Source: Candidatus Eiseniibacteriota bacterium (GTDB lineage: Bacteria > Eisenbacteria > RBG-16-71-46 > JABDJR01). From it: a DNA stretch of 64,000 nucleotides. Within the stretch, counting starts at the first letter, position 1. Every line of letters begins with the position of its first letter. Positions 34,507-57,285 of the stretch are shown piece after piece. The notes below the pieces were generated by a model. The model had not been told where the DNA came from and did no database searches. It saw only the letters and a program-made list of their open reading frames with translations. Made by a program: the position numbers and the translations under genes. The DNA is taken from assembly GCA_963783375.1 (NCBI GenBank), contig CAWANH010000003.1, forward strand, positions 1-64,000. The letters are read 5' to 3'.

Positions 34507-36144
34507 CTACGACGACGAGGAGACCTTCACCCACCGGGCGTCGTTGCTCGGCTTCAGGGGGGTGTTCTCCTGCACGTACTTGGTCAGGGTCTCGAGGTCG
34601 GTGTAGCCGGTGTAGAGGATATCCTCCGGGCTCAGCTCGTCGCGGAGGCGCCACATCCCGCTGTTCCCCTGGGCCAGGTAGTCGGTGAGGGCCACCTTGT
34701 AGGTCTTGTCGGGATCCAGCGGCTGGCCGCCCACGGTGATGTCCACGATCCGGTCCCCGTCCGGGCGGGAGAGGTCGTAGCGAACCTTGCCTCCGGAGAT
34801 GAAGATGCCCCCCGCCTGTCCGGTCAGCTTGTCCTCGAGAATGGCCCGGAGGAGCGACCCCTTCATGTTCACCAGCACCATCTGGTTCCCGAAGGGAGAC
34901 ACCGTCAGGAGGTCCCTCCGGGTGATCGTCCCGGGGGAGATGTCCGCCCGAACCCCGCCGGTGTTCTGGAACGCGAAGTCGGCATTCAGGATCGTCCGGT
35001 AGGCGTCCGCCACCACGAACCCCATGAGGGCGCTGTTGGGCGACCCGCGCTGGAGGAGCACCTCGGTCCGCCCCACCGTCTCTTCCAGCCCCGCCTCCGC
35101 CTTCGAGACCTCGGCCTGGATCACCTCCTTCTGGAGCTCGTCCGGCCAGATCTCGTCCTCGAACAGGGTGACCAGCGCGCCCCGGTCGGCGTGGGTCTCG
35201 AACCCGAGGAGCGACTTGGTGACGGGGTCGATCTTCAGGGTGACGTCCCCGATGCTGGAGCCGTTGGCGTAGGGCTCGAACACCAGGGTGTGGGTCCGGG
35301 GATCCTCCCAGGGCTGGTCGTACCCCTGGTGGGTGTGGCCCCCGAAGATCGCGTCCACGCCCCAGAGCATGTGGGCGATCTCCATGGCGTTCATGCCGTA
35401 GTGGGGAAGCCCGCCGTCCTTCTCCCGCTGGATCATGCGGCGGTACTCGTTGTCCCGCTCCGGCTTGTAGGGAAGGCCGGCGTGCATGAGCACGAAGACC
35501 AGGTCCGCGCCCTCCGCCCGCACCGTTTTCACGTCTTTCTGCAGGGCCTCGAAAACCGGCTCGAACTCGATCCCCTCGATGTTCTTCCCGAAGGACATGT
35601 TGGCGGTGGTTTCGGTGCAGTAGCCGAGCACCGCGATCTTGACCCCCTTGGCGTCGAGCCACACCGGGGAGGGGTCGACCCAGTCCTCGGTCTTCTTGGT
35701 CTTCGCGTCGAGGATGTTGGTTCCCAGGATCGGGAACTTGGCCAGCTCGATCAGACGCTTGGTGTTCTCCCACCCGAGGTCGAAGTCGTGGTTCCCCAGG
35801 GCCACCGCCGTGTAGTCCATGGCGTTCATCCACTGGATGATCGCGGTGCCCTTGGTGTTGATGCCCAGGGGGGTCCCCTGGAAGAGGTCGCCGGAGTCGA
35901 AGAGGAAGACCGGCCGCCCCGCCGCCTTGGCCGCGGCACGCGCGTTCTGGATGTAGGTGGTGGCGGAGGCGCCTCCTCCCAGGGGCGGAGGAAAGTTGGG
36001 GTTCAGGAACGTGGCGTCGTCGTGGGCGATGTGTCCGTGGATATCGCTGGTGTAGAGGATCTCCAGCGAGATCGGAGGCTTCTCGGGGGCGGCCCCCCCG
36101 AGGAACAGAAGCCCGAGGACGGCCAGGATGCTGAATCGCTTCAT
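34507..36144 (-). CDS. Exported 5'-nucleotidase (UshA-like bifunctional metallophosphatase)
   Basis: Signal peptide, SDIHG, DSGDLFQG, GNHDFD, GGHTHQ, C-terminal NTGGVRA...PFGN...DYLAQG. Confidence 0.93.
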   Translation of the reverse strand: MKRFSILAVLGLLFLGGAAPEKPPISLEILYTSDIHGHIAHDDATFLNPNFPPPLGGGASATTYIQNARAAAKAAGRPVFLFDSGDLFQGTPLGINTKGTAIIQWMNAMDYTAVALGNHDFDLGWENTKRLIELAKFPILGTNILDAKTKKTEDWVDPSPVWLDAKGVKIAVLGYCTETTANMSFGKNIEGIEFEPVFEALQKDVKTVRAEGADLVFVLMHAGLPYKPERDNEYRRMIQREKDGGLPHYGMNAMEIAHMLWGVDAIFGGHTHQGYDQPWEDPRTHTLVFEPYANGSSIGDVTLKIDPVTKSLLGFETHADRGALVTLFEDEIWPDELQKEVIQAEVSKAEAGLEETVGRTEVLLQRGSPNSALMGFVVADAYRTILNADFAFQNTGGVRADISPGTITRRDLLTVSPFGNQMVLVNMKGSLLRAILEDKLTGQAGGIFISGGKVRYDLSRPDGDRIVDITVGGQPLDPDKTYKVALTDYLAQGNSGMWRLRDELSPEDILYTGYTDLETLTKYVQENTPLKPSNDARWVKVSSSS

Positions 36145-36349: not shown

Positions 36350-37645
36350 CTAGAACGCATAATCCACGCCAAAATGGATCCGAACCAGGGTGTCTTCCAC
36401 CCGGTCCTTGCTGGCTCCCACCCCGAAGTTCTGGTTGTTCAGGTCTCCGCGTGAGCGGACCGGGTCCTGACGGCTCACCCGCTTCGACACTTCCCCGGAC
36501 ACATCGAGCTTCATCTGGTCGATCACGTACCCGAATCCGAAGGTGAAGGCCGAGGTCTGGGCTTCGGTCATCCCGTAGGAATCGCCGAAACGGAACCCGA
36601 TCCGGGCGGGGAGATTGTTGTAGAAGATGTGCTCGATCCCGAACCTCCCCTGCCAGGTGTCGTTCAGGGTGGCGGGAAGCCCGTAGTCGCTCTGAAGAAT
36701 GTCCGCCGGGAGCTTGTCCTTCAGCTCGGACCAGGGCATGTAGACCACGTCCGCGGCGAAGGTGGTCTCGAAGGTGTTCCGGGGCCGGTAGGCCAGTCCG
36801 CCCTGCACGCGGAGGGGCAGGGTCAGGTCGGCGTTGGAGTTCTCGGGGGAGACCTCCACCCCGTTGTACCAGAGGGTGTAGTCGTCGTGGAGCTTGGGGG
36901 CGGTCTCGATCGAGGCCCCCACGTCCAGGCGTTCATCCACGTGGGCCAGGGCCCCGATGGTGACCGAGAACCCGTCCAGCTTCCGCTCCAGGACGGTGTC
37001 GGTGCCGGACGAGTAGAAGGAGGTCGGGAACCGGACCAGGGCCCGGCGATCGGTGAAGGTTCCGAAGTAGTAGTTCACCGCCGCTCCCAGCGAGGATCCC
37101 TCCCCGAGGGGCAGCGCCACCCCGGCGCTGAGGCTGCGGAGCATCCCCTCGGAGGTGATGATCTTGTTGTTCAGCAGGGTGTCGCCTACGTCCTGGGACC
37201 GCAGTTCGTCCAGGTAGTCGAAGCGCGGGTCGTAGCGATTGAAGATCCCCACCGACACCAGGATGCCGCGCTTGCCCCATCGATCGAGAACGAATCCGCC
37301 CTGGACCCCGCCGTATCCGTTGTCGTTCACCGCGATGGCCGTCTCGTCCACGAAGGAGTCGAAGGTGTCGAAGAGCGGAACGAAACGGTTCTCGCTGGCC
37401 CGGGAAAGGGATCCTTCGATCTGCGCCCGGGTTCCCGGCGTGAGGACCATGGCCGCCGGGTTGTCCATCAGGCTGTAGGTGCCGTTCCCCATCGCCGCGC
37501 CGGCGCCGCCCATGGCCCGGGAGCGCGCGGAGAACCCCGCCTCCGGAGTCCCGTAGGCGCGATCGAGAAAGGAAAACGCGTGTGCCGGGCCGGCCGTCAC
37601 GACGATGGCGGCGGCAAGGACCAGCGACAGAATGACTCGCTTCAT
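36350..37645 (-). CDS. Outer-membrane beta-barrel, OmpP1/FadL/PorV-like
   Basis: Signal peptide, SARSRAMGGAG...NPAA N-terminal hatch motif, amphipathic beta-strands, C-terminal GVDYAF. Confidence 0.8.
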   Translation of the reverse strand: MKRVILSLVLAAAIVVTAGPAHAFSFLDRAYGTPEAGFSARSRAMGGAGAAMGNGTYSLMDNPAAMVLTPGTRAQIEGSLSRASENRFVPLFDTFDSFVDETAIAVNDNGYGGVQGGFVLDRWGKRGILVSVGIFNRYDPRFDYLDELRSQDVGDTLLNNKIITSEGMLRSLSAGVALPLGEGSSLGAAVNYYFGTFTDRRALVRFPTSFYSSGTDTVLERKLDGFSVTIGALAHVDERLDVGASIETAPKLHDDYTLWYNGVEVSPENSNADLTLPLRVQGGLAYRPRNTFETTFAADVVYMPWSELKDKLPADILQSDYGLPATLNDTWQGRFGIEHIFYNNLPARIGFRFGDSYGMTEAQTSAFTFGFGYVIDQMKLDVSGEVSKRVSRQDPVRSRGDLNNQNFGVGASKDRVEDTLVRIHFGVDYAF

Positions 37646-37676: not shown

Positions 37677-40295
37677 CTAGAAGGAATAGTCCAACTGAAA
37701 CCGATAGGCGCTCTGGTCACCCCGCGCGTTGGTGGCGTCCGGAGTGGGGTTCACGAGCGCCCCGTTGTTCCGGATGTCCACGTAGGTGCGCGCGAGCTGA
37801 TGGTCGGTGGTCCACTTGAACCGCCAGGAAACCTTGGGCGACAGGCGGCTCCTCACCATGAACCAGTTCCGGAAGCCGTTTCCGTCGACCACGATGAACT
37901 CGTTGTCCTCGAAGTTGTAGAGAAAGCCGTCGTAGACCTCGGTGGAGACCGTCGCGGTCAGATAGTCGCTGAAGTTGTGGCTCAAGGAGGCCTGCAGGGC
38001 CTTGGCCGGGATCCCCCGGGATCCCACCAGGTTCCCGTACACGCTCCCGCCCCCGGGGGCGCCGGAGAGGCGTGGACGGACCGCGAACTGCACGTTGGAG
38101 GTCGAGTACAGGAAGCTCATCCGGTCGTAGTCGGAGAGGTTGACCCGCATCTCGATCCGGCTGTCCCAGGACTTGAAATTCCGGAAGTCGTCCGGCCGCT
38201 GCTCGTGCCGGCTGGAGATCCGGTGGCGGATCCGGAAGCGAACCGGGAACACCGGCTGATATTCCGCCCGGACGGTGATCCGCTGCTCGTCGGCGCCGTC
38301 CGCCTTCCGGGTCCAGGTGTCGTACTCCAGGCCGGTCAGGGTAAACTGGCGGGAGAACTGGTACCGGGTGGTGAAGAACCAGCCCCGCTCCGCCTTCGGC
38401 TGGGGCTCACCTCTGGCCATCTCGGCCCAGTAGGGGTTGTTGAGCCGGTACGGGTTCCCGTCCAGGATGGTCTGCTGGTAGCGGCCGTTCTCGGAGAAGG
38501 CGCGGTTGTACGGGTTGTCGTAGCCGACGTCGTAGTCCCGGTAGAGGGCCAGGAAGTTGAAGTTCTCATACTGGACGTACGCGTTGGCGGTGAACGCCTC
38601 GGGACCCTTGGAGAAGATCCGGCTCAGGGCGTCGTTCTTGTCCGAGGTCTCGAGCTTTCCGTACTCCCCGGCCAGGGACACGTTCTTGAACACCGACTGG
38701 CCTTCGAGCCCCCAGATCCGGCGGTAGTTGCCCAGATCCATGCTGTTGTATCGCTGGGTGATCTCGGCGTCCCGGTCCTCCTGGCGGCGCAGGGGATCGA
38801 TGATCAGGGTGGTGGGATCCGGATTCCAGCGGTCGGCGCCGGGGGTGGAGTACGCGTTGTTGTGATACCGCATGTCCACCCCGGTCACTCCGAGAAAAGT
38901 GCCGGGCAGAAACTGGTACTTGAAGTTTCCGCCGACGATCTGCTCCTCCATCACGTCGCGCATGGGCTGGTAGTAGGAGCTGTCGCTGGCCCCCACCAGC
39001 GTTCCGTTACGGATGTCCTCCCGGATCCCGGCGTAGAGGTCGTTGTCGAACCGGGGAACCGCGGTGAAGTAGGAGTTGAAGGAGTGGTCGGGGTTCAGGA
39101 TGGCGTCCTTGTCGTCGTGGGAGTAGAACAAGGTGCCGCGGACGTTCCCCAGGCTCGCCTCCGCCGCCACCCCCTTCAGGGTGTACTCGTCGCTCCGGGA
39201 GAAGTCCCCCCGGAGCCCCAGCGACCGCACGTTGTAGCCGTAGCCGGTCCGCCGGGGGAGGTAGAAGTCGGTGGCGTCCATGACCAGCCCCTGGCCGAAT
39301 GCCACGGTGTAGTTCCCGACCACCGCGCTGTGGAGCTTGAACTTGCCGAGCGGCGTGTCCTTCTCCGGCAGCTCCTGGGCCTCGACGTAGGCCTTCGCCG
39401 TTTCGTCCCACTTCTCCTCGCCCAGATTCCGATGGGTGAGGACGCCGCCCCTCAGGTACCGGCCGTAGCGAAGATGGAGCTTGTTCGTCATGTAGGGACG
39501 CCAGGTCCCGATCGCCGCCCTCCCCCAGTAGGTGTTGGTGTCGAAATCCTTGGGGGTGGGCGCGATGATCTCGGTCAGGTTGTCCAGGTCGTCGAGGGAG
39601 TAGGGGGTGTTGTAGACCCGGAACTGGTAGTACCCGGTCAGCCGGTTCGGCCCGGTGGGCTCCTCGTAGCGCACGAAATCCCGTAGGTTCCGGTACCCCC
39701 AGTAGGTGATGCCGTTGGCCGAGCGGAGCTGTCGCTGATTCTCGATCCGGCCCGCCATCTTCCGTTCCTTCAGCACCGCCACCGCGTCCACCGGGGAGAC
39801 GTTCTGGAAGGAGACCAGATCGAAGTAGTTCATGCGGTTGATGTTCTGGGGGAACTTGAGCCGGTCGACGTACTGGTCGACCAGACCTTCGCTGGCCCCC
39901 TCTTCGGACAGGAACCGCTGGACGACGTAGTAGCGCTCCTGGGCGCGCCGCTCCTCTTCGCGCAGCTCCTCCCGCTCCAGCTCGAACACCGGGGTGATGT
40001 GGATCAGGGGCCGGATCTTCCCGAGAAGCTCCGGGGTCATGCCCGGGACCTCCATGAGGTCGTAGATGCTCCCGAAGTAGGCCCGATAGGTACGGTAGTG
40101 GAAGATCGCCTCCGCGACGTCGCCCGGTATGGGGAGAGCCTTGATCTGGTCCAGGCTGGCCCGGTTCAGATCGAGCTGGTTCTCCTGGGAGTAGGACGTC
40201 GCCGACCCGGCCGGCGGCTGGGCCCCGGCGCTGGCCGCGGCCCCGAGCCCCAGCAAGAGGGCGAGGAGGACGATCCCTCGGCGCTTGATCAACAC
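37677..40295 (-). CDS. Outer-membrane beta-barrel protein with two N-terminal ComEA-type helix-hairpin-helix domains
   Basis: Signal peptide; LDLNRASLDQIKALPI...AEAIFHYR...FGSIYDLMEVPGM; second NINRMNYFDL...VDAVAVLKER...QLRSANGI; GNYTVAFGQGLV; aromatic-rich strands; C-terminal FQLDYSF. Confidence 0.82.
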   Translation of the reverse strand: MLIKRRGIVLLALLLGLGAAASAGAQPPAGSATSYSQENQLDLNRASLDQIKALPIPGDVAEAIFHYRTYRAYFGSIYDLMEVPGMTPELLGKIRPLIHITPVFELEREELREEERRAQERYYVVQRFLSEEGASEGLVDQYVDRLKFPQNINRMNYFDLVSFQNVSPVDAVAVLKERKMAGRIENQRQLRSANGITYWGYRNLRDFVRYEEPTGPNRLTGYYQFRVYNTPYSLDDLDNLTEIIAPTPKDFDTNTYWGRAAIGTWRPYMTNKLHLRYGRYLRGGVLTHRNLGEEKWDETAKAYVEAQELPEKDTPLGKFKLHSAVVGNYTVAFGQGLVMDATDFYLPRRTGYGYNVRSLGLRGDFSRSDEYTLKGVAAEASLGNVRGTLFYSHDDKDAILNPDHSFNSYFTAVPRFDNDLYAGIREDIRNGTLVGASDSSYYQPMRDVMEEQIVGGNFKYQFLPGTFLGVTGVDMRYHNNAYSTPGADRWNPDPTTLIIDPLRRQEDRDAEITQRYNSMDLGNYRRIWGLEGQSVFKNVSLAGEYGKLETSDKNDALSRIFSKGPEAFTANAYVQYENFNFLALYRDYDVGYDNPYNRAFSENGRYQQTILDGNPYRLNNPYWAEMARGEPQPKAERGWFFTTRYQFSRQFTLTGLEYDTWTRKADGADEQRITVRAEYQPVFPVRFRIRHRISSRHEQRPDDFRNFKSWDSRIEMRVNLSDYDRMSFLYSTSNVQFAVRPRLSGAPGGGSVYGNLVGSRGIPAKALQASLSHNFSDYLTATVSTEVYDGFLYNFEDNEFIVVDGNGFRNWFMVRSRLSPKVSWRFKWTTDHQLARTYVDIRNNGALVNPTPDATNARGDQSAYRFQLDYSF

Positions 40296-40304: not shown

Positions 40305-41207
40305 CTACTTCCCGGACGGAAGGACGTAGCTGATTCCGAACTGGTGGGTGGTGTCCAGGGTGCCTCCCCCGGTGGAGAAGGCGTAGTCCAGGCTGATCCC
40401 GTAATGGTTGATTCCCACCCCGGCGGTGAAGACGTTGGGCGAGGTGCGGAGACCGGCCCGGAGCCTCAGGAACTCGGTCACCTCGAACTCGGTGCCCGCC
40501 CGGTACTGGAGCGCGTCGCCCAGCTGGTTGGTGATGTCCAGAACCGTGGTCACCCCGGCGTAGGGACTGTAGGCCACCCCCGCCCCGATCTGTCGGAGCA
40601 GTTCTTCGTGGTCGATCTTGCCGATCGACGGGTTGTTGATGTTGTGGGCGTAGAACCCGACCCGGGTCCGCTCGTGGACCACGGCCTGGGCGGAGAGGTT
40701 CACCCCCACCGTGGTCGCGCTCCCCGGATCCATCCCGGTCACCGATGTGCCGTAGTCCAGCGAGTAGAGGTTCACCGACCAACCCGCGCTCACCGTGCTC
40801 TGCATGTCCTGGAGGAGCTGGAAGCCGTGAGCGAGGGAGACCGTGGTCTCGCCGGTCAGGCTCTCTCCCAGGTACTCCACCGCGAAACGACGGATCCCGA
40901 TTCCCACTCCGCCCCAGCGGCCGATCGGGGCGATCCCCGAGACCACGCTCTGGCTCGAGAAGTCGTACCCGAAGGGACGGGTATAGGAGCCCGCTCCGCG
41001 AATGTCACCGGCCCAGGCCAGGGCGGCCGGGTTGTGGAACGCGGAATAGGCGTCGGGGCCCATGGCCACGAAGGACATCCCCATGCCCCGCGACCTCGGC
41101 GAGACCTCCACGTCGTCGAAGGCCGCGGAAGCGACCCCCGCCAGGCCCGCGCAGAGGGCAACAACTGCAATCAGGATCAGACCCTTCTGGCATTTCGTCC
41201 TTGGCAT
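40305..41207 (-). CDS. PorV/PorP-like small outer-membrane beta-barrel
   Basis: Signal peptide, SPRSRGMG...AFHNPAAL, NINNP, LRAG, LDYAF...THQFGISY. Confidence 0.8.
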   Translation of the reverse strand: MPRTKCQKGLILIAVVALCAGLAGVASAAFDDVEVSPRSRGMGMSFVAMGPDAYSAFHNPAALAWAGDIRGAGSYTRPFGYDFSSQSVVSGIAPIGRWGGVGIGIRRFAVEYLGESLTGETTVSLAHGFQLLQDMQSTVSAGWSVNLYSLDYGTSVTGMDPGSATTVGVNLSAQAVVHERTRVGFYAHNINNPSIGKIDHEELLRQIGAGVAYSPYAGVTTVLDITNQLGDALQYRAGTEFEVTEFLRLRAGLRTSPNVFTAGVGINHYGISLDYAFSTGGGTLDTTHQFGISYVLPSGK

Positions 41208-41216
41208 GACGCCTCC

Positions 41217-44200
41217 CTAATCCAACCGGACCGCTACCACGATGGGCGCCTGATCCTTGGTCACGTTGCCGTTCAAATCCGTGGTCATCAGATGGCAGAT
41301 GTACATCCCCGCGGGGACGAGTTCGTAGGTCTCGTCGCGTCCGTCCCAGCTCAGGGTCTTGGCGTAGGTCCCGCTGCCGGTGAAGTTCTCCTCGAGGAGC
41401 ACCTTCACCAGGCGGCCCTGGAGGTCGAAGACCCGGACGATGATCTTCCCCTGGGGCTCGATGGGGACGTTGATCTTGATATCGATGCGCTCGTTGGTGT
41501 TCTTGATCAGGGTCCGGGCCGGGATGACCAGGCGCCCCGTCCGCTCCACCTTCGCCGCGGTCAGAAAGCTGACCGTGGAATTGGCGGCGATGACGTTCCC
41601 GGCCAGGTCCTGGACGTTGTTGACCCGGACGATGTACGGGGTGTCCGCCTCGAGCGTTCCGCTCAGGGTCAGGGTCACCGTGGCCGCGGATACCGATGCG
41701 GAGACCACGGAGATCCCGGCCGACGGGTCCCCGGAGGGATAGACTTCGTAGTTGGAGGCGACGTTGGCCCCGGTCCCCACACCCTCGCTGAAGTTGACGG
41801 TGACCCGGTTGGATCCGGCGGAACCCGAGGCCGAGCTCATGACCGGCGGGGTGGTGTCCCCCGGCCCGCCCCCCTTGGAGAAGTCGTCGGCGTTCCCCAC
41901 GTTGATCTGGAAGGTGCTCTGGTACGCGCCCCCCGCCCCGGCGCCGGTCACCAGGTCGCCGGCCTTGAAGTCGGCGGCGTTGATCCCGGTGCTGTTCCGC
42001 ACCCGGAAGCTGATCCCCTGGGCGTCGTAGTTGTAGTTGCTGGCACCCGACGCCACCGGGGCCGAGACCAGGGCGGCGGTGGTCTGGATGTAGGTTCCCT
42101 CCCACTGGGGGTTCGCGGCCTGGGCCACGGAAAGCACCTTGGGCGCCAGCCGGGGCTGGTTGCTGGCCACCACGCTCACCGGGGACGGATTGAGGAGCTC
42201 CAGGGTGGTGAAGTACAGGGTATCCGCGCCGGTCACCTGGATCACGCTCCCCCGGCTCGCATAGGCGCTGACGAAGCTCCCGCCGAAGACGTTGAGCCCC
42301 CGGGCCGAGCCGTCCTGGATGTAGATGTTCGGCAGGCCGCTGGGCACGGGGATGTAGACCTGGCCGATCACCGTCACCTTGCGGCCGTTCCCGGGCGAGG
42401 TGGCGAACACGTCGGCGATGTTCATGACCGTGGCCGAGCTGGTCTGGAACGAGGCCGACCCGCCGCTCAGGGTCCCGCCGGCCTGGGCGTTCACCCCGCT
42501 CACCGTCACCGAATAGCCGGCGCTCTGGGGGAGCGGCGCCGCGGTCTTGAGCACCACCGTCTGGCCGTTCTCCTGGACGTAGGCCGACGAGAGGCTCAGG
42601 GAGGGCGTGAAGCTGTAGTTCGAGGTCTGGACCGCCTGGGCCAGGTTCACCTTGGCCGAGAACGTCACCGCCACGTAGTCCTTCCCGAACTGGAAGGCGT
42701 CGTTCACGGTGAAGTCCCCCCCTCCTCCGCCGGAGGTGAAGCTCACCGTCGAGTTGGCGAGGATGGCGTTCCCGGCCGCGTCCTGGACGTTCGACACCCG
42801 CACCGTGTACGAGGTCGAGGCGGCCAGGCTCGCGCCCAGGGTCAGGGTGACCGTCGATCCCGAGGCCGAGGCCGAGGTCACGGCCAGGGTGGCCGACGGG
42901 TTCGACGCCGGATAGACGCTGTAGTTGGAGGCGGTCGAGGCCCCGGCGGCCACCGCCTCGCTGAAGCTCACCGTCACCTGGCTGGCGCCGGAGGCGCCCG
43001 AGGCGCTCAGCAGGGTCGGCGGGGTGGTATCGGTCCCGGTCGCCTTGTAGAAGTCGGCCGCGTTCCCGACGTTGATCTGGAAGGTCTCCTGGAACGCGCC
43101 TCCCGCCCCCGCCCCGGTCACCGAGTCCCCGACGTGGTAGAGGCCGGTGTCGATCCCGGTCAGGTTCCGGGTGCGGAAGGTGATCCCCTGGGCGTCGATG
43201 TTGTAGGCGTAGCTTCCCGAGGCCACCGGCGCCGCGGTGATGGTGGAGGTGGTCTGGATGTAGGTCCCCTCCCACTGGGGGTTCGCGGCCTGGGCCACCG
43301 AAAGCACCTTGGGACCGAGCTTCGGCACCCCGGTGGCCACCGGGGTGGAACTCACGTTCACCAGCTCCACGGTGGTGAAGTAGGTGTCCACGGTGGCGGT
43401 CACCAGGCCCACGTCACCGATCGCATCGATGGCGGCCTGGGCGCCGGACCGGTCGAAGACATTGATCCCCCGGCCGGTTCCGTCCTGGATCCAGCCGCTG
43501 TAGTGACTCCCTTCGGCCAGCACCGGGATGAAGGCCTGCCCGATGACGTTGACCGAGGTGCCCTTGTAGCTGGCCAGATTGCTCTGGATCTGGTCGATCC
43601 CGATCACCTGCTTGTTGACGGTGGTGAAGGAGGTCGGCCCGCCGGACTGGAGGGCGGAGCCGCCCGCGCTGGTCACTCCCGATACCGCCACGGTGTAGCT
43701 CGTCGAGAGGGGCAGATTGGAGGCGGTCTTCAGGATCGCCGTCCTCCCGTTGTCCTGCACGGTCACGCTCTGGATGGTGACCGCAGGGGTCAGGGAATAG
43801 TTCGAGGCCACCGCGGCCTGGCTCGTGTTCACCAGGTCGCTGAAGGCCACCGCCACCTGGGCGGGGCCGAACTGGTAGAGGGCGGCCACCTGGAAGGTGC
43901 CGCCGCTCCCGCCTCCGGTGGTGAAGCTCGTCGTCGAGTTGGCCGCGATCAGATTCCCGGCCACATCCTGGACATTGGACACCTTCACCGTGTACGGGGT
44001 GGAGGCGGCCAGGCTCGAGCCCAGGGTGAGGGTCACCGTGGCCCCCGACACCGAAGCCGAGGAGACCCCGATCGTCGATGAGGGGCTGGACGTCGGGTAC
44101 ACGCTGTAGTTGGACGCGGTGGAGGCCCCGGCCGCCACCGTTTCCGAGAAGGTCACGTTCACCGTGCTCGATCCCGCGGTTCCCGAAGCCCCGACGAGGG

Positions 44201-46268
44201 TCGGCGCGGTGTTGTCCACCCCGCTCCCCTTCATGAAGTCGTCGGCGTTCCCCACGTTGATCTGGAACGTGGTCTGGTACGCCCCGCCCGCTCCCCCGCC
44301 GGTCACCGTGTCGCCGACGTTGTAGCTGGCCGCGTTGATCCCGGTGCTGTTCCGCACCCGGAAGGTGATCCCCTGGGCATCGTAGTTGTAGTTGCTGGCC
44401 CCGGAGGCCACCGGCGCCGCGGTCAGGGTCGAGGTGGTCTGGATGTAGGTCCCTTCCCACTGGGAGTTCGCGGCCTGGGAAACCGTGAGGACCTTGGGAG
44501 CCAGGTTGGGCTGCCCGCTGGCCACCGTGCTCACCGAGGTCGGGTTCTCGATCTCCAGGGTGGTGAAGTAGAACGTGCCCAACCCGGTGACCTCGATCAC
44601 GTTTCCCCGGCTCGCATAGGCCGGCTCCAGGTTCCCGCCGAAGACGTTCAGTCCCCGCGCGGAGCCGTCCTGGATGTAGATGCTCGGGGTGCCGCTGGTG
44701 ACGGGGATGAAGATCTGGCCGATCACGGTTACCGTCTGGTCGCCGCCGGAAATGGTGGTGTGGACGTCGGCGATGTTCATGACGGTGGCCGCGCTGGTCT
44801 GGAACGAGGCCGCGCCGCCGTTCAGGGTCTCACCGCTCGCCCCTCCCACCCCGGTCACCGTCACCGCATAGCTCGTGCTCTTGGGGAGCGCGGCCGCGGT
44901 CTTGAGCACCACCGTCCGGCCGTTCTCCTGAACGTAGGCCGACGAAACGGTCAGGGACGGGGTGAAGCTGTAGTTCGAGACTGCAACCGCCTGGGCCGCG
45001 TTCACCTTGGCCGAGAAGGCCACCGCCACGTAGTCCTTCCCGAACTGGAAGGCCCCGGTCACGCTCAGGCCCCCGCCGCTTCCCCCACCGGTGGTGAAAC
45101 CCACGGTGGAGTTGGCGGCGATCGCGTTTCCGGCCACGTCCTGGACGTTGGAAACCTTCACCGTGTACGAGGTTGAGGAGGTGAGGGCAGAGGCCAGGGT
45201 GAGGGTCACCAGCGCCCCGGATCCCGAGGCCGCCGACGCCGAGCTCACCGCGATGGTGGCCGAGGGATTGGCGGTCGGGTACACCGAATAGTTCGCCGCG
45301 GTCTCCGCGCCGGTTCCCACCGGCTCGGAGAAGGTCACGCTGATCGTGCTCGAGGCGGCGGTCCCCGAAGCTCCGACGAGGGTCGGCGGCGTGGTGTCCG
45401 CTCCGCCGCCGCCGGGCGGCGTCCCGTCGGTGTTGTCGGTGAAGGTGACGGAGAGGTTCTCGCTGGTCTCGTCGCGGCCGTTCACGCCGTTGCCGCCGCT
45501 GGTCTTCTGGGTTCCCTCGGAGTTGTCGACCCGGATCAGGGTTCCGGTGGGGTTCCCGAAGGGGGCCGTCGCGTCCTGGGCGGAGATCGCGGTGTCCGGC
45601 TGGTACATGGTCGGAGTGGAGTCGGCGTCGGGGCCGTCGATGGAGACCCCGGTCTTGTCCACCGCCTCGTCCTTGTCCCCCCAGACCACGTAGTCGATAT
45701 CGGTCACCAGGTCCGTCTGCCCGTCCCAGTAGAAGAGGACCACGATCTCGCCGGTGTTGGTGAGACTCGGGTTGGTAGTCGAGTTGATCGAACCCGGGCG
45801 GGCGTCCCGCATGTCGGGGATCGCGTCGGAGCTGGTCCCGTCCTCATAGAGCTCGTAGGTGGGCTGGACCCCGTAGGTGCCGAAGAACCCGTCGCTCCCG
45901 TCGACCGCGATCGAGGCCTCGGCTCCCGGGGCCAGGGTCGCCCCGGCCGGGAAACGAGCCACGAAGTCGGTGAAGTTGCCGCCCGCGATGTCCTTGGAGG
46001 GATCGGGGAGGTTGTAGTAGTACTGGCTCAATGGAGCGTAGGTGGCGTCGGTCAGGTAGTAGTCCGACAGATCCACCGTGGAGCTTCCCGGGTTCTTGAT
46101 CACGATGTACTCACCCGGAGTGGTCGGGCCGCCTCCGCGAACCTCGACCTGGCTGATCAGGAGCTTGGCGGGTGTCTGGGCGGAGGCGGGAAGCGGAAAC
46201 TGGAGGAAGGCGACGATCACGAGGGCGGCGGCGGCGATGCCCGCCGCGTTCCGTGCACGGTTCAACAT
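41217..46268 (-). CDS. Large secreted surface protein: lamin-tail domain, 3x(Ig-Ig-OB-OB) repeats, extra Ig, FlgD-type C-terminal domain
   Basis: Signal peptide; LLISQV...GEYIVIKNP...VDLSDYYLTD (LTD); DTTPPTL...VTFSE...ASNYSV...VQDVAGN (Ig-like); IYIQDG..RG(L/I)NVF and WEGTYI...GDTVTG (OB-like); VRVFDLQGRLV...WDGRD...PAGMY. Confidence 0.85.
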   Translation of the reverse strand: MLNRARNAAGIAAAALVIVAFLQFPLPASAQTPAKLLISQVEVRGGGPTTPGEYIVIKNPGSSTVDLSDYYLTDATYAPLSQYYYNLPDPSKDIAGGNFTDFVARFPAGATLAPGAEASIAVDGSDGFFGTYGVQPTYELYEDGTSSDAIPDMRDARPGSINSTTNPSLTNTGEIVVLFYWDGQTDLVTDIDYVVWGDKDEAVDKTGVSIDGPDADSTPTMYQPDTAISAQDATAPFGNPTGTLIRVDNSEGTQKTSGGNGVNGRDETSENLSVTFTDNTDGTPPGGGGADTTPPTLVGASGTAASSTISVTFSEPVGTGAETAANYSVYPTANPSATIAVSSASAASGSGALVTLTLASALTSSTSYTVKVSNVQDVAGNAIAANSTVGFTTGGGSGGGLSVTGAFQFGKDYVAVAFSAKVNAAQAVAVSNYSFTPSLTVSSAYVQENGRTVVLKTAAALPKSTSYAVTVTGVGGASGETLNGGAASFQTSAATVMNIADVHTTISGGDQTVTVIGQIFIPVTSGTPSIYIQDGSARGLNVFGGNLEPAYASRGNVIEVTGLGTFYFTTLEIENPTSVSTVASGQPNLAPKVLTVSQAANSQWEGTYIQTTSTLTAAPVASGASNYNYDAQGITFRVRNSTGINAASYNVGDTVTGGGAGGAYQTTFQINVGNADDFMKGSGVDNTAPTLVGASGTAGSSTVNVTFSETVAAGASTASNYSVYPTSSPSSTIGVSSASVSGATVTLTLGSSLAASTPYTVKVSNVQDVAGNLIAANSTTSFTTGGGSGGTFQVAALYQFGPAQVAVAFSDLVNTSQAAVASNYSLTPAVTIQSVTVQDNGRTAILKTASNLPLSTSYTVAVSGVTSAGGSALQSGGPTSFTTVNKQVIGIDQIQSNLASYKGTSVNVIGQAFIPVLAEGSHYSGWIQDGTGRGINVFDRSGAQAAIDAIGDVGLVTATVDTYFTTVELVNVSSTPVATGVPKLGPKVLSVAQAANPQWEGTYIQTTSTITAAPVASGSYAYNIDAQGITFRTRNLTGIDTGLYHVGDSVTGAGAGGAFQETFQINVGNAADFYKATGTDTTPPTLLSASGASGASQVTVSFSEAVAAGASTASNYSVYPASNPSATLAVTSASASGSTVTLTLGASLAASTSYTVRVSNVQDAAGNAILANSTVSFTSGGGGGDFTVNDAFQFGKDYVAVTFSAKVNLAQAVQTSNYSFTPSLSLSSAYVQENGQTVVLKTAAPLPQSAGYSVTVSGVNAQAGGTLSGGSASFQTSSATVMNIADVFATSPGNGRKVTVIGQVYIPVPSGLPNIYIQDGSARGLNVFGGSFVSAYASRGSVIQVTGADTLYFTTLELLNPSPVSVVASNQPRLAPKVLSVAQAANPQWEGTYIQTTAALVSAPVASGASNYNYDAQGISFRVRNSTGINAADFKAGDLVTGAGAGGAYQSTFQINVGNADDFSKGGGPGDTTPPVMSSASGSAGSNRVTVNFSEGVGTGANVASNYEVYPSGDPSAGISVVSASVSAATVTLTLSGTLEADTPYIVRVNNVQDLAGNVIAANSTVSFLTAAKVERTGRLVIPARTLIKNTNERIDIKINVPIEPQGKIIVRVFDLQGRLVKVLLEENFTGSGTYAKTLSWDGRDETYELVPAGMYICHLMTTDLNGNVTKDQAPIVVAVRLD
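41560..45398 (-). repeat. Intragenic tandem repeat, ~1.18 kb unit x3 plus a partial fourth unit
   Basis: Unit starts (DTTPP/DNTAP) at 45398, 44216, 43031 and 41858, spacing 1182/1185/1173 bp, with near-identical blocks such as QWEGTYIQTT and TFQINVGNA. Confidence 0.92.
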
Positions 46269-46503: not shown

Positions 46504-46532
46504 AGTCTAACCCCCGCCTCCGGGAATTTCCA
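46504..46532 (-). promoter_or_regulatory. Candidate sigma70-type promoter for the surface-protein/barrel operon
   Basis: TGGAAA-17 nt-TAGACT on the minus strand, overlapping the AT-rich 3' end and stop of the upstream gene. Confidence 0.35.
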
Positions 46533-48726
46533 CCCATATTGGGTTGCTGAACCCTATCGATTTTGTCAATGAGCGTTGTTCAGTCGATTCGGTCGTCCCC
46601 ATCACTGGATTGTCCGACGGTGGATTGCTGTGGAAAACCCCGTCCACTCGAATCACGACGTACCCGGACCGGTCCACCGCCGGCTCGACATCCTCGTCGA
46701 AGCGGAGGGATCGGTCGCGCCCGCGCAGCATGAAGATCGAGTCGGCCTTCCCGTTGACGATGACCGTCACCTTGCGGACCTCGACCGACGACGGAGCCCA
46801 GACCGTGAGATGGCCTCGGAGGACGCCGGCCGCGGTCACGAGGGTGTCGCCGATCGTTTCCCCCCCCAACCGGAAATCGATGAAGGGGCCGTCGGAGACC
46901 ATCACCCTGCCGGCGCGGATGGCGTTCATCACGCCGTCCACGGTCGCGGGGCCGTCTCCGGTGAAGACGAGGCTCCGCGCTCCCCAGGGCGCGTCCCCCG
47001 AGAGCCCGTCCGAGCCGGCGCTCCCCACCCCGGTGCGCTTCCGGCCTTCGCCGAGGTCCTCGAGCCACCGTTTCCAGCGGGTCTCGAACGAACCGTCGTC
47101 CCGATGCCCGAGGAGTTCGACCGTCGTGCCGGTCCCGCCCCCGGGAAGACGCCGGAGCGGCGAGGCCAGGTTGAGGGTGTCGATCGCCGAATCGTAGTCG
47201 GTGCGCCGGTCGCGGTCGACGGACGCGAACCACGCAACGCCCTCCGAGGCCAGCGCGCGCGCGCGGTCCGGCACCTCGACCTCGGTCCCGGGGCTGGGCG
47301 CCGCCCGCACTCCGGTGTCCACCGCCACCCATCCCCGGGGAAGATCGAGCGGGGTGATGACCGCCTGGAGCGCGGCCTTCCGGCCGGAGTGCAAGGTCGC
47401 CTCGACCTGCCATTCTTCGAAAGACGGACCGCGGGCGGCGGTGACCCGGTAGCGCCCGGCGGGAATCTCCACGCGGATCCCCCCGGTTCCCGAGAACACC
47501 GCGCGTCCCGCCCCGTCGGCCCGCCAGTCGGGTCCGAGATCGGGGTTCGGCGTGCCGTCGATGCCGGTGAAGAGCCACTTGGCGGGAGAGGGGCTCCCGT
47601 TCACGTCCACCGCGACCAGGGTGACCGTCGCCGCCTGGGGGAGCTCGAATGAGGCGTGGGCGTCCTTCCCCACCTCCACCCGCTCCTCGCGCTCACGCTC
47701 GGCGGGACCGCGGCGGGGATGGCGGGCGGTGACTCGATAGCGCCCGGGGGGAAGGGCCAGGGTCACCCGTCCCCGGCGGTCCGTCTCTCCGAGACCTCGG
47801 GATACACCCTCTTCGTCCACCGCTTCGATCACCGCATCCGCCACCGGGCGGCCGTCGTCCCCCTCGACGTCGGCGCGGAGCTTTCCCACCGGCCGGCCCT
47901 TCGTCGCCCAGGCCGCTTCCTGGGCCCGGGCGGCGGAGCCTCGGACGGCGAACAGGAGCCGTTCATAGCGGGCGGTGTCGCCGGGGGCCAGGGTCGCGGT
48001 CGCGGCGGTCAGCGCCGAACCGTTCCGGCCTTGCCGGGCGCTGAGATCGCCGGCCGTGCTCACCCAAGCGTAGCCGCTTCCCTCGCCCGAGGCGGCGGCG
48101 AAGGGTATCGCCACGGGTGCGGCGGTGGCGAGCGCGCCCCGCCCCGGTGCGTAGGGCTCGGCCCGCCCCCACTCCACCACGTCCCCGAGGGGAAAGGCGG
48201 CCAGGGTGTCGGCCCCCGTGTTCACCACCGTGGTGCGGATGGTGAGGTGATCGGAGCCGGCGCGAAGCTCGTAGCGGGTCTCCACCCGGAGCCGGGAGCG
48301 GCCGGGATCACCGCCGGTCCACCGGCCGGAGGCCACCAGCACCTGGAGGGAGCTGTCGGGCGCGGTGTCGCCCCGAACCTCGTCGTACCGAACGGGCAGG
48401 AGCAGGGAGTCCCCGAGGCCGGTGAAGATCCCACGAAGGGCGTCCCGGCCGCCGGCCGGAGCCGCGTCGATCAGGTTCCCCGCCGCCGGCGCCCGGTTCG
48501 AGGCGGCGCCCGCCACCACCACGGTGAGGTGCTCGTTCACGAGGAGCCAGTCCCCCGCCCTCCCCTCGACCGTCCCCCCGGCGAGGGGGGGTGGGGCGGT
48601 GAGTTCGTGCGATGTCACGAAGGGGGGCGGCGGGAGCGGGACCGGTTCCGGTGGAGGTGGTCCTCCCGCGCAGGAGACGGTGAGAAGCGAGCCGGCGAGG
48701 AGAAGGGGACGGAAGGGGATGCGCAT
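46507..48726 (-). CDS. Lipoprotein with carboxypeptidase-regulatory-like beta-sandwiches and a degenerate PHP (CehA/McbA-like) domain
   Basis: Lipobox TVSC, GDWLLVNEHL...GNLIDA, PAGRYRVTAARGP, AIRAGRVMVSDGPFI, SNPIWV; His metal ligands absent. Confidence 0.72.
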   Translation of the reverse strand: MRIPFRPLLLAGSLLTVSCAGGPPPPEPVPLPPPPFVTSHELTAPPPLAGGTVEGRAGDWLLVNEHLTVVVAGAASNRAPAAGNLIDAAPAGGRDALRGIFTGLGDSLLLPVRYDEVRGDTAPDSSLQVLVASGRWTGGDPGRSRLRVETRYELRAGSDHLTIRTTVVNTGADTLAAFPLGDVVEWGRAEPYAPGRGALATAAPVAIPFAAASGEGSGYAWVSTAGDLSARQGRNGSALTAATATLAPGDTARYERLLFAVRGSAARAQEAAWATKGRPVGKLRADVEGDDGRPVADAVIEAVDEEGVSRGLGETDRRGRVTLALPPGRYRVTARHPRRGPAEREREERVEVGKDAHASFELPQAATVTLVAVDVNGSPSPAKWLFTGIDGTPNPDLGPDWRADGAGRAVFSGTGGIRVEIPAGRYRVTAARGPSFEEWQVEATLHSGRKAALQAVITPLDLPRGWVAVDTGVRAAPSPGTEVEVPDRARALASEGVAWFASVDRDRRTDYDSAIDTLNLASPLRRLPGGGTGTTVELLGHRDDGSFETRWKRWLEDLGEGRKRTGVGSAGSDGLSGDAPWGARSLVFTGDGPATVDGVMNAIRAGRVMVSDGPFIDFRLGGETIGDTLVTAAGVLRGHLTVWAPSSVEVRKVTVIVNGKADSIFMLRGRDRSLRFDEDVEPAVDRSGYVVIRVDGVFHSNPPSDNPVMGTTESTEQRSLTKSIGFSNPIWVEIPGGGG

Positions 48727-48861: not shown

Positions 48862-50775
48862 TCAGCGGATGTAGAGCATCTTCCGGGTCAGGACCTGGCT
48901 CCCCACCTCGAGGCGGTAGAAATAGATCCCGGTGCCCGAGTTCCCCATGGTGGTCGCGTCGACGCTGGCCACGTGATCCCCGGGGGTCATCTCGGCATCC
49001 ACCAGGGTACGCACCAGGCGTCCCTGGATGTCGAACACCGAGAGCTTCACCGGTGTCCGGACGTCCGCCCCCGCGGCCGCCGGCACCTGGAAGTGAATCT
49101 CGGTGCGGGCCCCGAAGGGGTTGGGGATGTTCTGGGCCAGCCGGAGCGTCGGCTTGAGCGGGTTGTCGCCCACGCCGGTGGCGGTCAGGAACACGATGTC
49201 GCTGGCGAACCGCGGCACGATCTCGTAGCCGCCGGTGTAGGGGCTCGAGCTGTCGTACTGGCTGCCGATCCCGGTCACCGTGATGTACTGGCTGGTCACC
49301 GGGGTGCCGGGGATGTTCGTGTCCAGGTCGATGAACATCTGGACCGAGTCCGGGACGCAGTTCCGGATGTAGTAGCTCACGTTGGTTCCCGCCGGCGACA
49401 GGGTGTCGACCCCGGCCGGGAGAGCGGCGATGTTCATGGTGATGAGCTCGCCCTCGAAGGCCTCGAAATCGTCGCAGGAGGTGACGATCTTCGGCGCCGG
49501 AACCGCTCCCGGACCGTTGATGTCCACCAGCAGGGAGTCGCAACCGGCCCCCGAGGTGATCTCGAGCTTCCCGTTGTACTGGTCGATCGTGCCCTCGACG
49601 GTCACGTCGTCCCCCAGGCTGGGCTGCACGGTGTGGGTCCCGTACTTGAACACGTCGATCCCGCCGGTGGCGTCCTGGATGTAGTACTCGGTGTTCGCGG
49701 TCTGGAACACGCCGTAGGGAACGGTGCAGTTGCCCCGGACCCGAACTCCCAGGAAGCGGTAGATGTTGGCCTGGTTGGCGTCCATCACCTGGATATCGCC
49801 GATGTCCGTCGTCCCCACGAAGTACCCCCGCTCGAAGCCGACGGTGGTGTCGGGGTTGGCGTTCCGGGCGTAGACGGTGTAACGAACGATGTCACCGTTC
49901 GAGGGCTGGCCGGGGATGGTCGCCTGGAACACGGTGGTGTCGCCCGAGGTGGAGAACGTGCTCATGGCCACCACGCTCTCCGCCCCGCCGTTCACCGAGT
50001 AGTGGAGGTCGGCGGCGGTGGCGTAGAGAACGAAGGCCTGCGCGGTCACCGACTGGTTCGGCACCGGGACGCAGGGGGTGCGGAGCTGGTCGAAGACGTC
50101 CGGGGGCGGATTCAGGCAGCTCGGGTTCGGGCTGCCGGGGGTGTCGTCGATGCCCAGGGTGAACTGCCCGATGACCCACTGGTTGACCAGGTCGGAGCAG
50201 CGATAGACGTGGCCGGGGACGAAGGAGCCGTCCGGACCTACCGTGGTGGCGCAGTAGAGGTACTCGTCGCCCGCGCAGTTGGGGGTGGTCCCCTCGTCCA
50301 GCCCGACGCAGTCCACGATGGACGTCCACGGAGTGGTGTCGAAGGTGCCGGTATCGAGGGTGTCGAGATCCTGGCCGTCGGTTCCCGTGAACCCGAGCAC
50401 CAGCATGTGGGTGACGTTGTCGCTGTTTTCGAAGTTCATGGCCAGCGACGCGTCGTATCCGGTGAGCGTGTTGGCGTCACCGGCCTTCAGCGCCGCGAAC
50501 AGGCTGTCGGCCTGGATGGAGTACCCGTCCAGGGGCGTCACCGACTCGATGGTTCCGCAGGAAGTCACCGAGCCGTCCCCGATCACGAGGTAGGTGTAGC
50601 CGTTCAGGCTGGTGCCCGGAGCGCCCTTCAGTTCGAAGTACTCATCGGTGTCCCCGCCCGGCATGTCGGTGCGGATCTCGTTGATCTTGATCTGGGCCGA
50701 AGCCGTCCCGATCATTCCCATCAACCCGATGCCCAGCGCGAGAAAGAAGACGAATCGCAGCGTAGGTCGTTTCAT
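48862..50775 (-). CDS. Secreted protein: LTD-like domain, Ig-like domain, OB-fold(s), T9SS/FlgD-type C-terminal sorting domain
   Basis: Signal peptide; INEIRTDMPGGDTDEYFEL...NFENSDNVTH; YYIQDATGGIDVF...LGDDVTVEGTIDQYNGKLEI; VTGIGSQYD...YEIVPR; AQNIPNPF...VFDIQGRLV...GIYFYRL...RKMLYIR. Confidence 0.85.
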   Translation of the reverse strand: MKRPTLRFVFFLALGIGLMGMIGTASAQIKINEIRTDMPGGDTDEYFELKGAPGTSLNGYTYLVIGDGSVTSCGTIESVTPLDGYSIQADSLFAALKAGDANTLTGYDASLAMNFENSDNVTHMLVLGFTGTDGQDLDTLDTGTFDTTPWTSIVDCVGLDEGTTPNCAGDEYLYCATTVGPDGSFVPGHVYRCSDLVNQWVIGQFTLGIDDTPGSPNPSCLNPPPDVFDQLRTPCVPVPNQSVTAQAFVLYATAADLHYSVNGGAESVVAMSTFSTSGDTTVFQATIPGQPSNGDIVRYTVYARNANPDTTVGFERGYFVGTTDIGDIQVMDANQANIYRFLGVRVRGNCTVPYGVFQTANTEYYIQDATGGIDVFKYGTHTVQPSLGDDVTVEGTIDQYNGKLEITSGAGCDSLLVDINGPGAVPAPKIVTSCDDFEAFEGELITMNIAALPAGVDTLSPAGTNVSYYIRNCVPDSVQMFIDLDTNIPGTPVTSQYITVTGIGSQYDSSSPYTGGYEIVPRFASDIVFLTATGVGDNPLKPTLRLAQNIPNPFGARTEIHFQVPAAAGADVRTPVKLSVFDIQGRLVRTLVDAEMTPGDHVASVDATTMGNSGTGIYFYRLEVGSQVLTRKMLYIR

Positions 50776-50970: not shown

Positions 50971-51816
50971 TCAGGAGACAAGGAGCCGGGGGAGGAGGGC
51001 CTGGAGGAACCGGGTGAAGGTCTCCCGGACCCGGGCCGTAACCTCCATCACCTCTTGATGGTGGAGCGGCTCGGCACTGAGCCCGGCGGCCAGGTTGGAT
51101 ATGCAGGAGATCCCCAGGACCTCCATCCCCAGATGGCGGGCCGCCACCACCTCGGCCACCGTGGACATCCCCACCGCATCCCCCCCGAACCGCTTGACCA
51201 TCCGGATCTCGGCGGGGGTCTCGTAGGCCGGTCCCAGGTTCCCCCAGTAGGTCCCCGCGCGGACCCGCGCCAGCCCCAGCTCGGCCGCGGTCCGGTGCGC
51301 GACGTCCAGGAGCCGGCGGGAGAAGGGCTCGGACATGTCCACGAAGCGGTCCCGGTCGAGGAGCGGGCCCCGTCCCCGGAGCGGGCTCTGGAACTGGAGG
51401 TTCATCTGATCCTCGATCAGCATGAGATCGCCCGGCTCCAGCCGGTGATCCACTCCCCCCGCGGCGTTCGTCACCACCAGGACCCGGGCTCCCAGGGCGT
51501 GCATCACCCGCAGAGGGAAGGTGATCTGCGCCGCGGAGTACCCCTCGTAGAGGTGGAACCTCCCCTGCTGGGCCGCCGCCGGAACGCCGTTCGCCGCCCC
51601 CAAGACCAGCCGCCCGGCGTGCCCCTCCACCGTGGATACCGGAAAACCCGGGAGATCGGCGTAGTCCACCGCGACCCGGTCTGCGAAGGTATCGGCGTAG
51701 TCCCCGAGCCCCGAGCCCAGGATCAGGGCCACTCCGGGAACCTGATCGGTCCGGGCCCGGACCGCCGCCGCCGCCCGCTCCACCTCTTCCGGGCCGTAGG
51801 CCATGACGCCGCTCAT
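50971..51816 (-). CDS. punA: Purine-nucleoside phosphorylase (trimeric type)
   Basis: ILGSGLG, STVEGHAG, QGRFHLYEGY, TNAAGG, GPAYETPAE, VGMSTVAE, SNLAAG. Confidence 0.96.
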   Translation of the reverse strand: MSGVMAYGPEEVERAAAAVRARTDQVPGVALILGSGLGDYADTFADRVAVDYADLPGFPVSTVEGHAGRLVLGAANGVPAAAQQGRFHLYEGYSAAQITFPLRVMHALGARVLVVTNAAGGVDHRLEPGDLMLIEDQMNLQFQSPLRGRGPLLDRDRFVDMSEPFSRRLLDVAHRTAAELGLARVRAGTYWGNLGPAYETPAEIRMVKRFGGDAVGMSTVAEVVAARHLGMEVLGISCISNLAAGLSAEPLHHQEVMEVTARVRETFTRFLQALLPRLLVS

Positions 51817-52442: not shown

Positions 52443-52458
52443 GGGTCCTCTCCCCGTC

Positions 52459-53589: not shown

Positions 53590-53695
53590 CGTGAAACCCT
53601 TTCTTGCCCGCCCGCCTCCGCGGGCCCGTTCTGCATCCTGTCCCGGCCGCGCGGCGGTCCGGCCCCGGCCCGATCCGGCCCCCCCGCGCCCCCGG

Positions 53696-55611: not shown

Positions 55612-55712
55612 GCGTTCGTCTCCCGAGGTTCTTGAGTTCCGGGCCCCGGGACGTGGCCGGGACCTCCGCGCGGGAGCCCCGGCCGTGAGCCGGCCGGGCC
55701 TCCGAATACAGC

Positions 55713-57023: not shown

Positions 57024-57285
57024 GTCTCCCCCTCGGAGCATCGCCCCGCGGCTCCGCCCCCGGTTGTCCCCGTCGGCGCTCACCCATCGGCCCCGAACTC
57101 CGGAGCCGGACCGGGCCCGAACCCCCCGTCGCCGGACGGAGGAAGCGACGGCCGGATGATCATCCCTCGCCGCCGGGTAACTATCCCGTCGGAGGCGGGG
57201 TTATGACGGGCGCCCGCTTGGAACTCGGTGGTCGGCATGAGCCGGGCCGTGGATTGTGCCCCGATCGGCCCGGGGAGGCAAGTGC

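Follow-up and report, generated by a model that had tools for sequence, protein, structure and literature searches.

The 64,000-nucleotide (nt) stretch of Candidatus Eiseniibacteriota bacterium DNA analyzed here (hereafter, the window; assembly GCA_963783375.1, contig CAWANH010000003.1, positions 1 to 64,000) encodes, at 41217..46268 on the minus strand, a probably secreted 1683-amino-acid (aa) cargo protein that combines a lamin-tail domain (LTD), three Ig-Ig-OB-OB units, a further Ig domain and a C-terminal secretion tail of a special class. The protein contains no recognizable nuclease domain and stands at the head of a gene cassette with a fixed order. We interpret it, with a probability of about 0.65, as a non-catalytic nucleic-acid capture arm that would be exported through a type IX secretion system (T9SS), anchored to the barrel encoded next to it and used for feeding.

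Architecture of the cargo protein

The open reading frame (ORF) runs from 46268 to 41217, with a GC content at third codon positions of 0.93; all its parts lie on the minus strand. It starts with a Sec-type signal peptide (aa 1-30; 46179..46268), recognized by eye from the basic start, the hydrophobic core and the ASA/Q junction, without a lipobox Cys. The signal peptide is followed by the extended LTD, a single acidic domain (aa 31-285; 45414..46178). Unit 1 (aa 291-684, 394 aa; 44217..45398) consists of two Big_5 Ig domains and an OB-OB pair at 44217-44798; unit 2 (aa 685-1079, 395 aa; 43032..44216), with the OB pair at approximately 43032-43622, is the divergent one; and unit 3 (aa 1080-1470, 391 aa; 41859..43031), with the OB pair at 41859-42443, is the sister of unit 1. 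A seventh Big_5 Ig domain (aa 1471-1570; 41559..41858) leads to the special FlgD/T9SS-type C-terminal domain (aa 1571-1683; 41220..41558), which terminates in APIVVAVRLD. Pfam recognizes seven Big_5 stretches and one LTD above the cut-off (PF00932, 35.8 bits; cut-off 34.3). The Ig profile matches 2RA1 (E 1.5e-8) and Sap (E 8e-4), both of them S-layer proteins, and because of this SbsC/Sap-like character, the Ig domains can be read as probable spacers. Comparison of the whole protein with the sequences of solved structures gave no match.

The units are similar at both the protein and the DNA level: units 1 and 3 share 286 of 390 aa (73%; DNA, 79.5%), units 1 and 2, 240 of 390 (62%; DNA, 69%), and units 2 and 3, 230 of 389 (59%; DNA, 68%). 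The blocks FQFGKDYVAV (aa 407 and 1192) and AYVQENG (aa 444 and 1229) are confined to units 1 and 3, which is explained by a tree of 41 OB pairs, where these two units group together as sisters while unit 2 falls on a different branch. In this tree, many units cluster by genome, that is, units are duplicated within lineages, as expected of avidity modules. The relatives G003 and G006 carry three units and G001 two, so an assembly artefact as the source of the repeats was rejected. The OB pairs of units 1 and 2 in the G003 orthologue (L021:9845-15031) are identical at the protein level, pointing to a very recent duplication or conversion, and the G004 orthologue (L024:10353-15493) is broken by a stop codon and a frameshift into three ORFs, one with the LTD alone, one with two units, and one with a single unit and the tail. 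In two relatives recorded as Candidatus Eisenbacteria (L040 and L044), the LTDs are 80% and 64% identical to the one analyzed here. The layout and the repeats agree with the original prediction, a short note made from the sequence alone, which had described this domain layout, the DNA-level similarity of the units and the two blocks that unit 2 lacks, and had called for a comparison of copy numbers and for structure searches.

The same note saw no catalytic domain, and the searches bear this out. No nuclease family matches the 1683-aa protein at E<=0.05 in Pfam or NCBIfam, and the same searches yielded no SNase, 5'-nucleotidase or His-Me catalytic domain. The EEP domain and NF033681 likewise gave no match, and all 1683 residues fall in other domains. 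The entire protein contains four His, none of them inside the LTD.

Pfam does not detect the three OB pairs. The evidence for the fold comes from the AlphaFold model of the unit 1 region (aa 491-684; 47-row alignment; predicted local distance difference test score (pLDDT) 94.5). The model splits into two predicted barrels that match RPA, tRNA-synthetase anticodon domains, POT1, Teb1, Stn1 and HIN domains, with the best matches at Z 12.4 for the first half (root-mean-square deviation (rmsd) 1.5, 81 residues aligned) and Z 11.3 for the second half (rmsd 2.6, 87 aligned). Each of the 50 matches listed for the pair is either an OB fold from a nucleic-acid-associated protein or an OB domain that has been engineered. 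Three aromatic residues (Y567, Y664 and F668) and two arginines (R538 and R637) are conserved over 165 copies of the OB pair. The PF18942 (DUF5689) profile matches neither the 1683-aa protein nor its three OB pairs. A homologous OB pair (probability 94, E 9e-8) is present in the neighboring 637-aa protein (48862..50775, minus strand), a second non-catalytic cargo with an LTD-like domain, an Ig domain, an OB pair that matches DUF5689 weakly and an ordinary type A tail. A 589-aa paralogue elsewhere in the genome (G000:C3, approximately 225063-226829; L032:7064-8830), located in a cluster of secreted proteins, contains one Ig domain, an OB pair split by an insert and a FlgD-type tail.

A special tail, the adjacent barrel and a conserved cassette

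A feature that the original prediction overlooked is that the C-terminal tail belongs to a special class tied to the next gene. Among the 84 tail-bearing frames of the genome, the tail with the terminal motif AP[IV]VVxxRL is the sole member of its class (148 bits vs <=49 for the 83 others, with the profile containing the protein itself, which inflates its score). The broader tail profile used for relatives was trained on proteins picked by the motif, so that counts obtained with it are partly circular; the gene order is independent of the profile. The TIGR04183 score is 19.9 bits for the whole protein and 23.6 for the isolated tail (cut-off 23), and CHU_C (PF13585) does not match the tail at E<=0.5, with weak matches in 2 of 37 relatives. 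The genome encodes SprA (above the cut-off), a PorU-like gene (377 bits, cut-off 420) that adjoins PorV, and six PorV-family genes above the cut-off, and it seems likely from this gene content that the cargo is exported through the type IX system.

Only 9 nt downstream of the cargo gene, a 300-aa PorV/PorQ/PorP-like barrel is encoded (40305..41207, minus strand; family matches below the cut-offs, PF11751 at E 0.001 and NF033709 at 56.7 bits), which is predicted to be a dedicated anchor or shuttle. Co-folding of the tail with this barrel gave a score of 0.93 against 0.00 for the best control, above a mark that is passed by 116 of 157 solved complexes and by 2 of 215 mismatched pairs; contact agreement between runs was at least 98%, and the partner reached a pLDDT of 85 or more. 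Among the contacts, the best placed are those of aa 1584-1588 and of two residues of the class motif, P1675 and V1677, at the center of the interface. The tail is predicted to dock on the adjacent barrel, which would hold the cargo at the cell surface. Because solved PorV-tail complexes exist, the high score may, however, reflect likeness to them, and it is no proof that the tail prefers this barrel to those of the six other PorV-family genes. In Bacteroidota, type B T9SS cargos are held by cognate PorP/SprF barrels that are encoded beside them (PMC9143113, PMC12618676).

The cassette comprises, on the minus strand, the cargo gene, the PorV/PorP-like barrel, an 872-aa protein with an N-terminal ComEA-type helix-hairpin-helix (HhH) domain and a predicted outer-membrane barrel ending in Phe (37677..40295), a 431-aa FadL/OmpP1/BamG-like outer-membrane barrel (36350..37645; matches below the cut-offs) and an exported 545-aa 5'-nucleotidase/UshA-like enzyme (34507..36144), separated by gaps of 9, 9, 31 and 205 nt. 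The 872-aa and 431-aa proteins yielded no match to plug or TonB families. The HhH barrel was found in 16 of the 206 genomes of the phylum. In all 14 relatives compared (14 of 15 barrel loci), the order is special tail, PorV-like gene, HhH barrel, and the FadL-like gene and the nucleotidase come next in 13 of the 13 with room. The order extends to 80 metagenomic barrel loci, where the PorV-like gene is directly upstream of the HhH barrel in 62 of the 63 that have room and is itself preceded by a special-tail cargo in 52 of 53; a FadL-like gene follows downstream in 53 of 62, and 31 of 40 have a nucleotidase no more than 3.6 kb away. In the literature searched, with subscription papers and supplements outside the search, neither the cassette nor the tail class was found to be described.

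The ComEA-type HhH domain on the barrel protein brings up another purpose for the same capture arm, namely, that the cassette imports long DNA for natural transformation, with the HhH domain acting as a periplasmic ComEA-like ratchet and feeding being secondary. A ComEC-type metallo-beta-lactamase (MBL) is encoded in or beside the cassette in 16 of the 80 metagenomic loci, albeit not in the locus analyzed here, recO is downstream in some loci, and Riemerella requires ddb homologues for transformation (PMC8459023, PMC12478041). However, the recurrent partners of the cassette, that is, the nucleotidase, NupC or ABC transporters and deaminases, destroy or recycle DNA, and no dprA, comF or pilus genes are present among the neighbors scanned, so that we consider transformation an unlikely primary role. 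In some relatives, the ComEC-type MBL gene lies between the FadL-like barrel and the nucleotidase (L024:4054-5397, L049:7295-8671, L050:4099-5442), and in one clade, two CAP-domain genes occupy this place (L132:13091-14649, L136:12839-14406).

Exchangeable modules and the extended LTD

The special tail is the constant part of the cargo slot and the most conserved feature of the protein, whereas in the N-terminal part, OB pairs and extended LTDs take each other's place. The family of the protein analyzed here combines an LTD with two or three units; two other families lack OB pairs and have LTD-PKD repeats, two or three in number; and yet another has two OB-pair units and no LTD. Among 53 metagenomic slot cargos, 22 of which are cut by a contig end, OB pairs alone were seen in 39 and extended LTDs alone in 8; the remaining 6 had neither module and, at the thresholds used, no cargo had both. 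Seven of the OB cargos bear an ordinary short LTD, and there are LTD-only cargos with two to six copies. A scan of 37 special-tail proteins, of which 35 are slot cargos and two are additional short ones, found no nuclease Pfam family. Nor does precomputed Pfam annotation place one in any of the 67 proteins with the special tail that are among the top 120 relatives of the LTD, and only 4 of these 67 leave at least 140 residues outside the LTD, OB and tail regions. In five loci (L092, L101, L104, L105 and L106), the main cargo comes after another special-tail OB protein, which is short; in the two of these loci that were scanned, L092 and L101, an ABC transporter is encoded further upstream, with an MBL gene beyond it. 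In the region L028:10938-19819 of G019, a genome that lacks the barrel cassette, an extended LTD forms a free-standing 302-aa protein, whose neighbors are an OB-tail protein, a purine nucleoside phosphorylase and an ABC transporter of the nucleoside type.

Aa 31-285 are modeled as one domain (pLDDT 93.9; predicted template modeling score (pTM) 0.93). The top structural match is the DUF4876 protein BT_1938 (PDB 4Q1Z; Z 14.2, rmsd 3.3, 192 aligned residues, 17% identity) and the next one is the lamin Ig fold (Z 7.6). Given that the 4Q1Z match spans model residues 4-255, the acidic extension named in the original prediction is not a separate module but part of the predicted LTD fold. The DUF4876 Pfam profile matched 0 of 105 LTD family members at E<=0.1, the LTD profile recovered only chance antibody matches among the sequences of solved structures, and an Atlas search with aa 31-285 returned LTD clusters only. 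The extended LTD family includes 982 clusters at E<=1e-30. Among the top 120 longer relatives, 22 contain an EEP or Endonuclease I domain (precomputed Pfam), and of the 35 further representatives scanned (out of 112 new ones), 23 have an EEP domain and none has another enzyme class. Judging from these fusions, the extended LTD is mostly an accessory domain.

The original prediction had also suggested that the LTD could be an unrecognized catalytic module, and a related possibility is that a metal-dependent nuclease or phosphodiesterase activity is hidden in the extended LTD or else in an OB pair. Seven residues (D190, D192, R246, E251, N260, E267 and E270) are nearly invariant across 325 LTD domains, and metal binding is plausible from this conservation; the LTD-only cargos with several copies and the slower in vitro action of ExeM deprived of its LTD (PMC6085458) are also compatible with an enzymatic role. 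Nevertheless, nuclease-fused extended LTDs retain E56 in 45 of 45 domains, H103 in 32 of 45 and a His near position 238 in 45 of 45, whereas all three residues are missing from 7 of 7 LTD copies of the family analyzed here, which makes cryptic catalysis by this copy unlikely from the sequence comparison. Furthermore, the extended LTD is absent from the 39 OB-only cargos among the 53 in the slot, it is usually the partner of a true EEP or Endonuclease I domain, and there are no enzymes among its clear structural matches. The suggestion of a catalytic LTD is thus not supported, and we regard a hidden enzyme in the protein as highly unlikely. ExeM and Xds can do without the LTD but not without the OB region (PMC6085458, PMC6746945).

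Proposed nucleic-acid capture and its relation to known systems

The wider locus is rich in genes of nucleoside salvage. A block of six genes (50971..57083, minus strand) encodes purine nucleoside phosphorylase (50971-51816), uridine kinase (51813-52442), adenosine deaminase (52459-53589), a deoxyadenosine-deaminase-like amidohydrolase (53696-55051), a phosphoribosyltransferase (55048-55611) and a NupC-type nucleoside transporter (55713-57083). A CehA/McbA-like metallohydrolase lipoprotein (46507..48726, minus strand) is kept in the family of the protein analyzed here and missing at this place in G001 and in other families. No nuclease family was found within the locus. An alpha-2-macroglobulin and PBP1C pair directly downstream (26394-34231), ordinary in itself, is retained here across the family, and a 439-aa ORF of coding-like base composition at 21739-23055 has no match in Pfam at E<=1e-6. 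The scans for promoters and terminators did not rise above chance, except for a 13-pair hairpin at 48810-48839, 3' of the 637-aa gene. One RNA run had a share of 0.05, with contigs that are patchy and 85-99% identical and hence derive from relatives, so that they are not informative on expression level or co-transcription.

Two secreted nuclease-type proteins, both with ordinary secretion tails, are encoded on the minus strand 100-125 kb away on the same contig. One is a 458-aa Endonuclease I family protein (G000:C3:171347-172723; L060:6347-7723) with a signal peptide, His-Me-type motifs recognized by eye and an ordinary type IX tail, a candidate for a nuclease acting in trans; the other is a 696-aa DNase-I-like EEP protein (G000:C3:146766-148856; L059:6767-8857), with a weak NF033681 match and catalytic-type motifs that look intact by eye. 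The original prediction offered two readings, a multivalent, stalked nucleic-acid trap or a scaffold for a nuclease encoded elsewhere. The predicted fold, the gene context and these two genes favor the trap, with cleavage probably provided by nucleases from elsewhere; no evidence was found for direct scaffolding. A cellulosome-like arrangement, in which a separately encoded nuclease binds to the repeats, could draw on these same two proteins; however, each has its own ordinary tail, neither has a repeated docking module, and Endonuclease I is missing from 6 of the 16 cassette genomes, which makes such a scaffold most improbable.

Under the capture-arm interpretation, a cargo with six OB folds and one extended LTD on Ig spacers would leave the cell via the type IX system and would be kept on the surface by its tail clipped to the adjacent barrel. 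The OB pairs would grip extracellular DNA or RNA by base stacking, with low affinity at each site and avidity from multivalency, near the HhH barrel and the FadL-like pore. The captured nucleic acid would be cut by nucleases from elsewhere, namely, Endonuclease I and the DNase-I-like protein in this genome and, within the cassette of some relatives, the ComEC-type MBL. The fragments would then cross the outer membrane via the HhH barrel or the FadL-like barrel, the 5'-nucleotidase would strip their phosphate, and NupC would import the nucleosides for the salvage enzymes.

Several observations, along with the limits of the co-fold given above, weigh against this interpretation. The three OB pairs are neutral to acidic (K+R/D+E of 6/12, 9/14 and 10/10) and the LTD is strongly acidic (38 D/E and 12 K/R in aa 31-285), a composition that appears atypical of DNA binders unless cations bridge. 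OB folds bind sugars and proteins too. For the 872-aa protein, the barrel is predicted only from the Phe at its C-terminus, a strand heuristic and look-alikes in the Atlas. The FadL-like gene is missing in 9 of 62 loci and the nucleotidase in 9 of 40, and several loci that lack them sit among housekeeping genes (ksgA, recO, glycyl-tRNA synthetase). Finally, Endonuclease I, present in 10 of the 16 cassette genomes vs 78 of 206 overall, is not a fixed partner of the cassette.

The acidic composition would also suit a role as surface adhesin or as matrix tether, with binding not of food nucleic acid but of a glycan, a protein, a mineral or extracellular DNA as a biofilm scaffold. The Ig domains resemble those of the S-layer proteins SbsC and Sap. 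The DUF4876 proteins, the nearest structural relatives of the LTD, are iron-regulated (PMC10434189) and have been proposed as lids of TonB transporters (10.1101/2023.03.17.533168), and type B T9SS cargos on PorP-like barrels include adhesins (PMC9143113). Set against this are the exclusively nucleic-acid-associated or engineered OB folds among the 50 matches listed for the OB pair and the fixed linkage of the cargo to the HhH barrel and the nucleotidase, and we find an adhesin quite unlikely.

Among the known systems, the proposed nucleic-acid capture arm is reminiscent of DdbD (DUF5689), the OB-type lid encoded in the ddbABCDEF DNA-utilization locus of Bacteroides thetaiotaomicron (PMC12478041). 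In both cases, a non-catalytic OB-pair protein is encoded beside an outer-membrane barrel; both models resemble the p202 HIN domain (4JBM is among the matches of the OB pair), and three slot cargos as well as the 637-aa neighbor match DUF5689 weakly. Unlike ddb, a DNA-feeding locus, the locus described here has no TonB-dependent transporter (DdbC) and no nuclease, and unlike DdbD, its cargo does not match DUF5689, is predicted to be displayed by a secretion tail and a PorV/PorP-like barrel, and carries an LTD in addition to three OB pairs mounted on Ig stalks. With ExeM, Xds and NucH (NF033681), the protein shares the signal peptide, the LTD and OB (YhcR-like) modules, and extended LTDs are often fused to EEP (PMC6085458, PMC6746945); it differs in the absence of an EEP domain, in the anchor and in the triplication of the OB pairs. 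The type B T9SS cargos, such as SprB-SprF and PG1035-PorP, similarly have a small barrel gene directly after the cargo gene (PMC9143113, PMC12618676), and a tail-barrel complex is predicted here, but the tail analyzed here has no CHU_C match, ends in the class motif and occurs outside Bacteroidota, and its barrel is weakly PorP/PorV-like and in fixed linkage with the HhH barrel. The DNA-degradation loci of Ca. Izemoplasmatales, compared by their description, also combine a large secreted protein that has LTD and nucleic-acid-binding parts with nucleotidases and nucleoside transporters (PMC8289736); in that case, however, the protein is described as containing a nuclease domain, and the bacteria are wall-less and have no outer membrane. 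The DUF4876 lipoprotein BT_1938 is the best structural match of the extended LTD, whereas the protein analyzed here gives no DUF4876 profile match, is not a lipoprotein and has no TonB transporter next door. By analogy, the cargo would work like DdbD and like the accessory half of ExeM/Xds, yet it lies outside the membership of each.

A tentative extension, possible but doubtful at present, is that in uncultured phyla of the FCB group, the cassette imports nucleic acid across the outer membrane independently of pili and TonB. A third type IX tail class would fasten an interchangeable capture arm to a dedicated barrel, next to a pore with its own ComEA ratchet, and the LTD itself would be a cation-bridged nucleic-acid-binding module. 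The latter idea comes from the substitution of extended LTDs and OB pairs for one another in the capture arm. To our knowledge, the bacterial lamin-tail domain has had no function assigned over twenty years, and the natural LTD/OB swap, together with the His-keeping and His-lacking versions, provides a handle on what this domain binds, using small soluble domains. The 110-aa tail and the 272-aa barrel, with their confident predicted interface, may represent a further type IX tail class with a dedicated anchor outside Bacteroidota. Thus, a 'nuclease without a nuclease' becomes a testable part of what would be a widespread, unstudied route of extracellular nucleic-acid use in uncultured soil and sediment bacteria.

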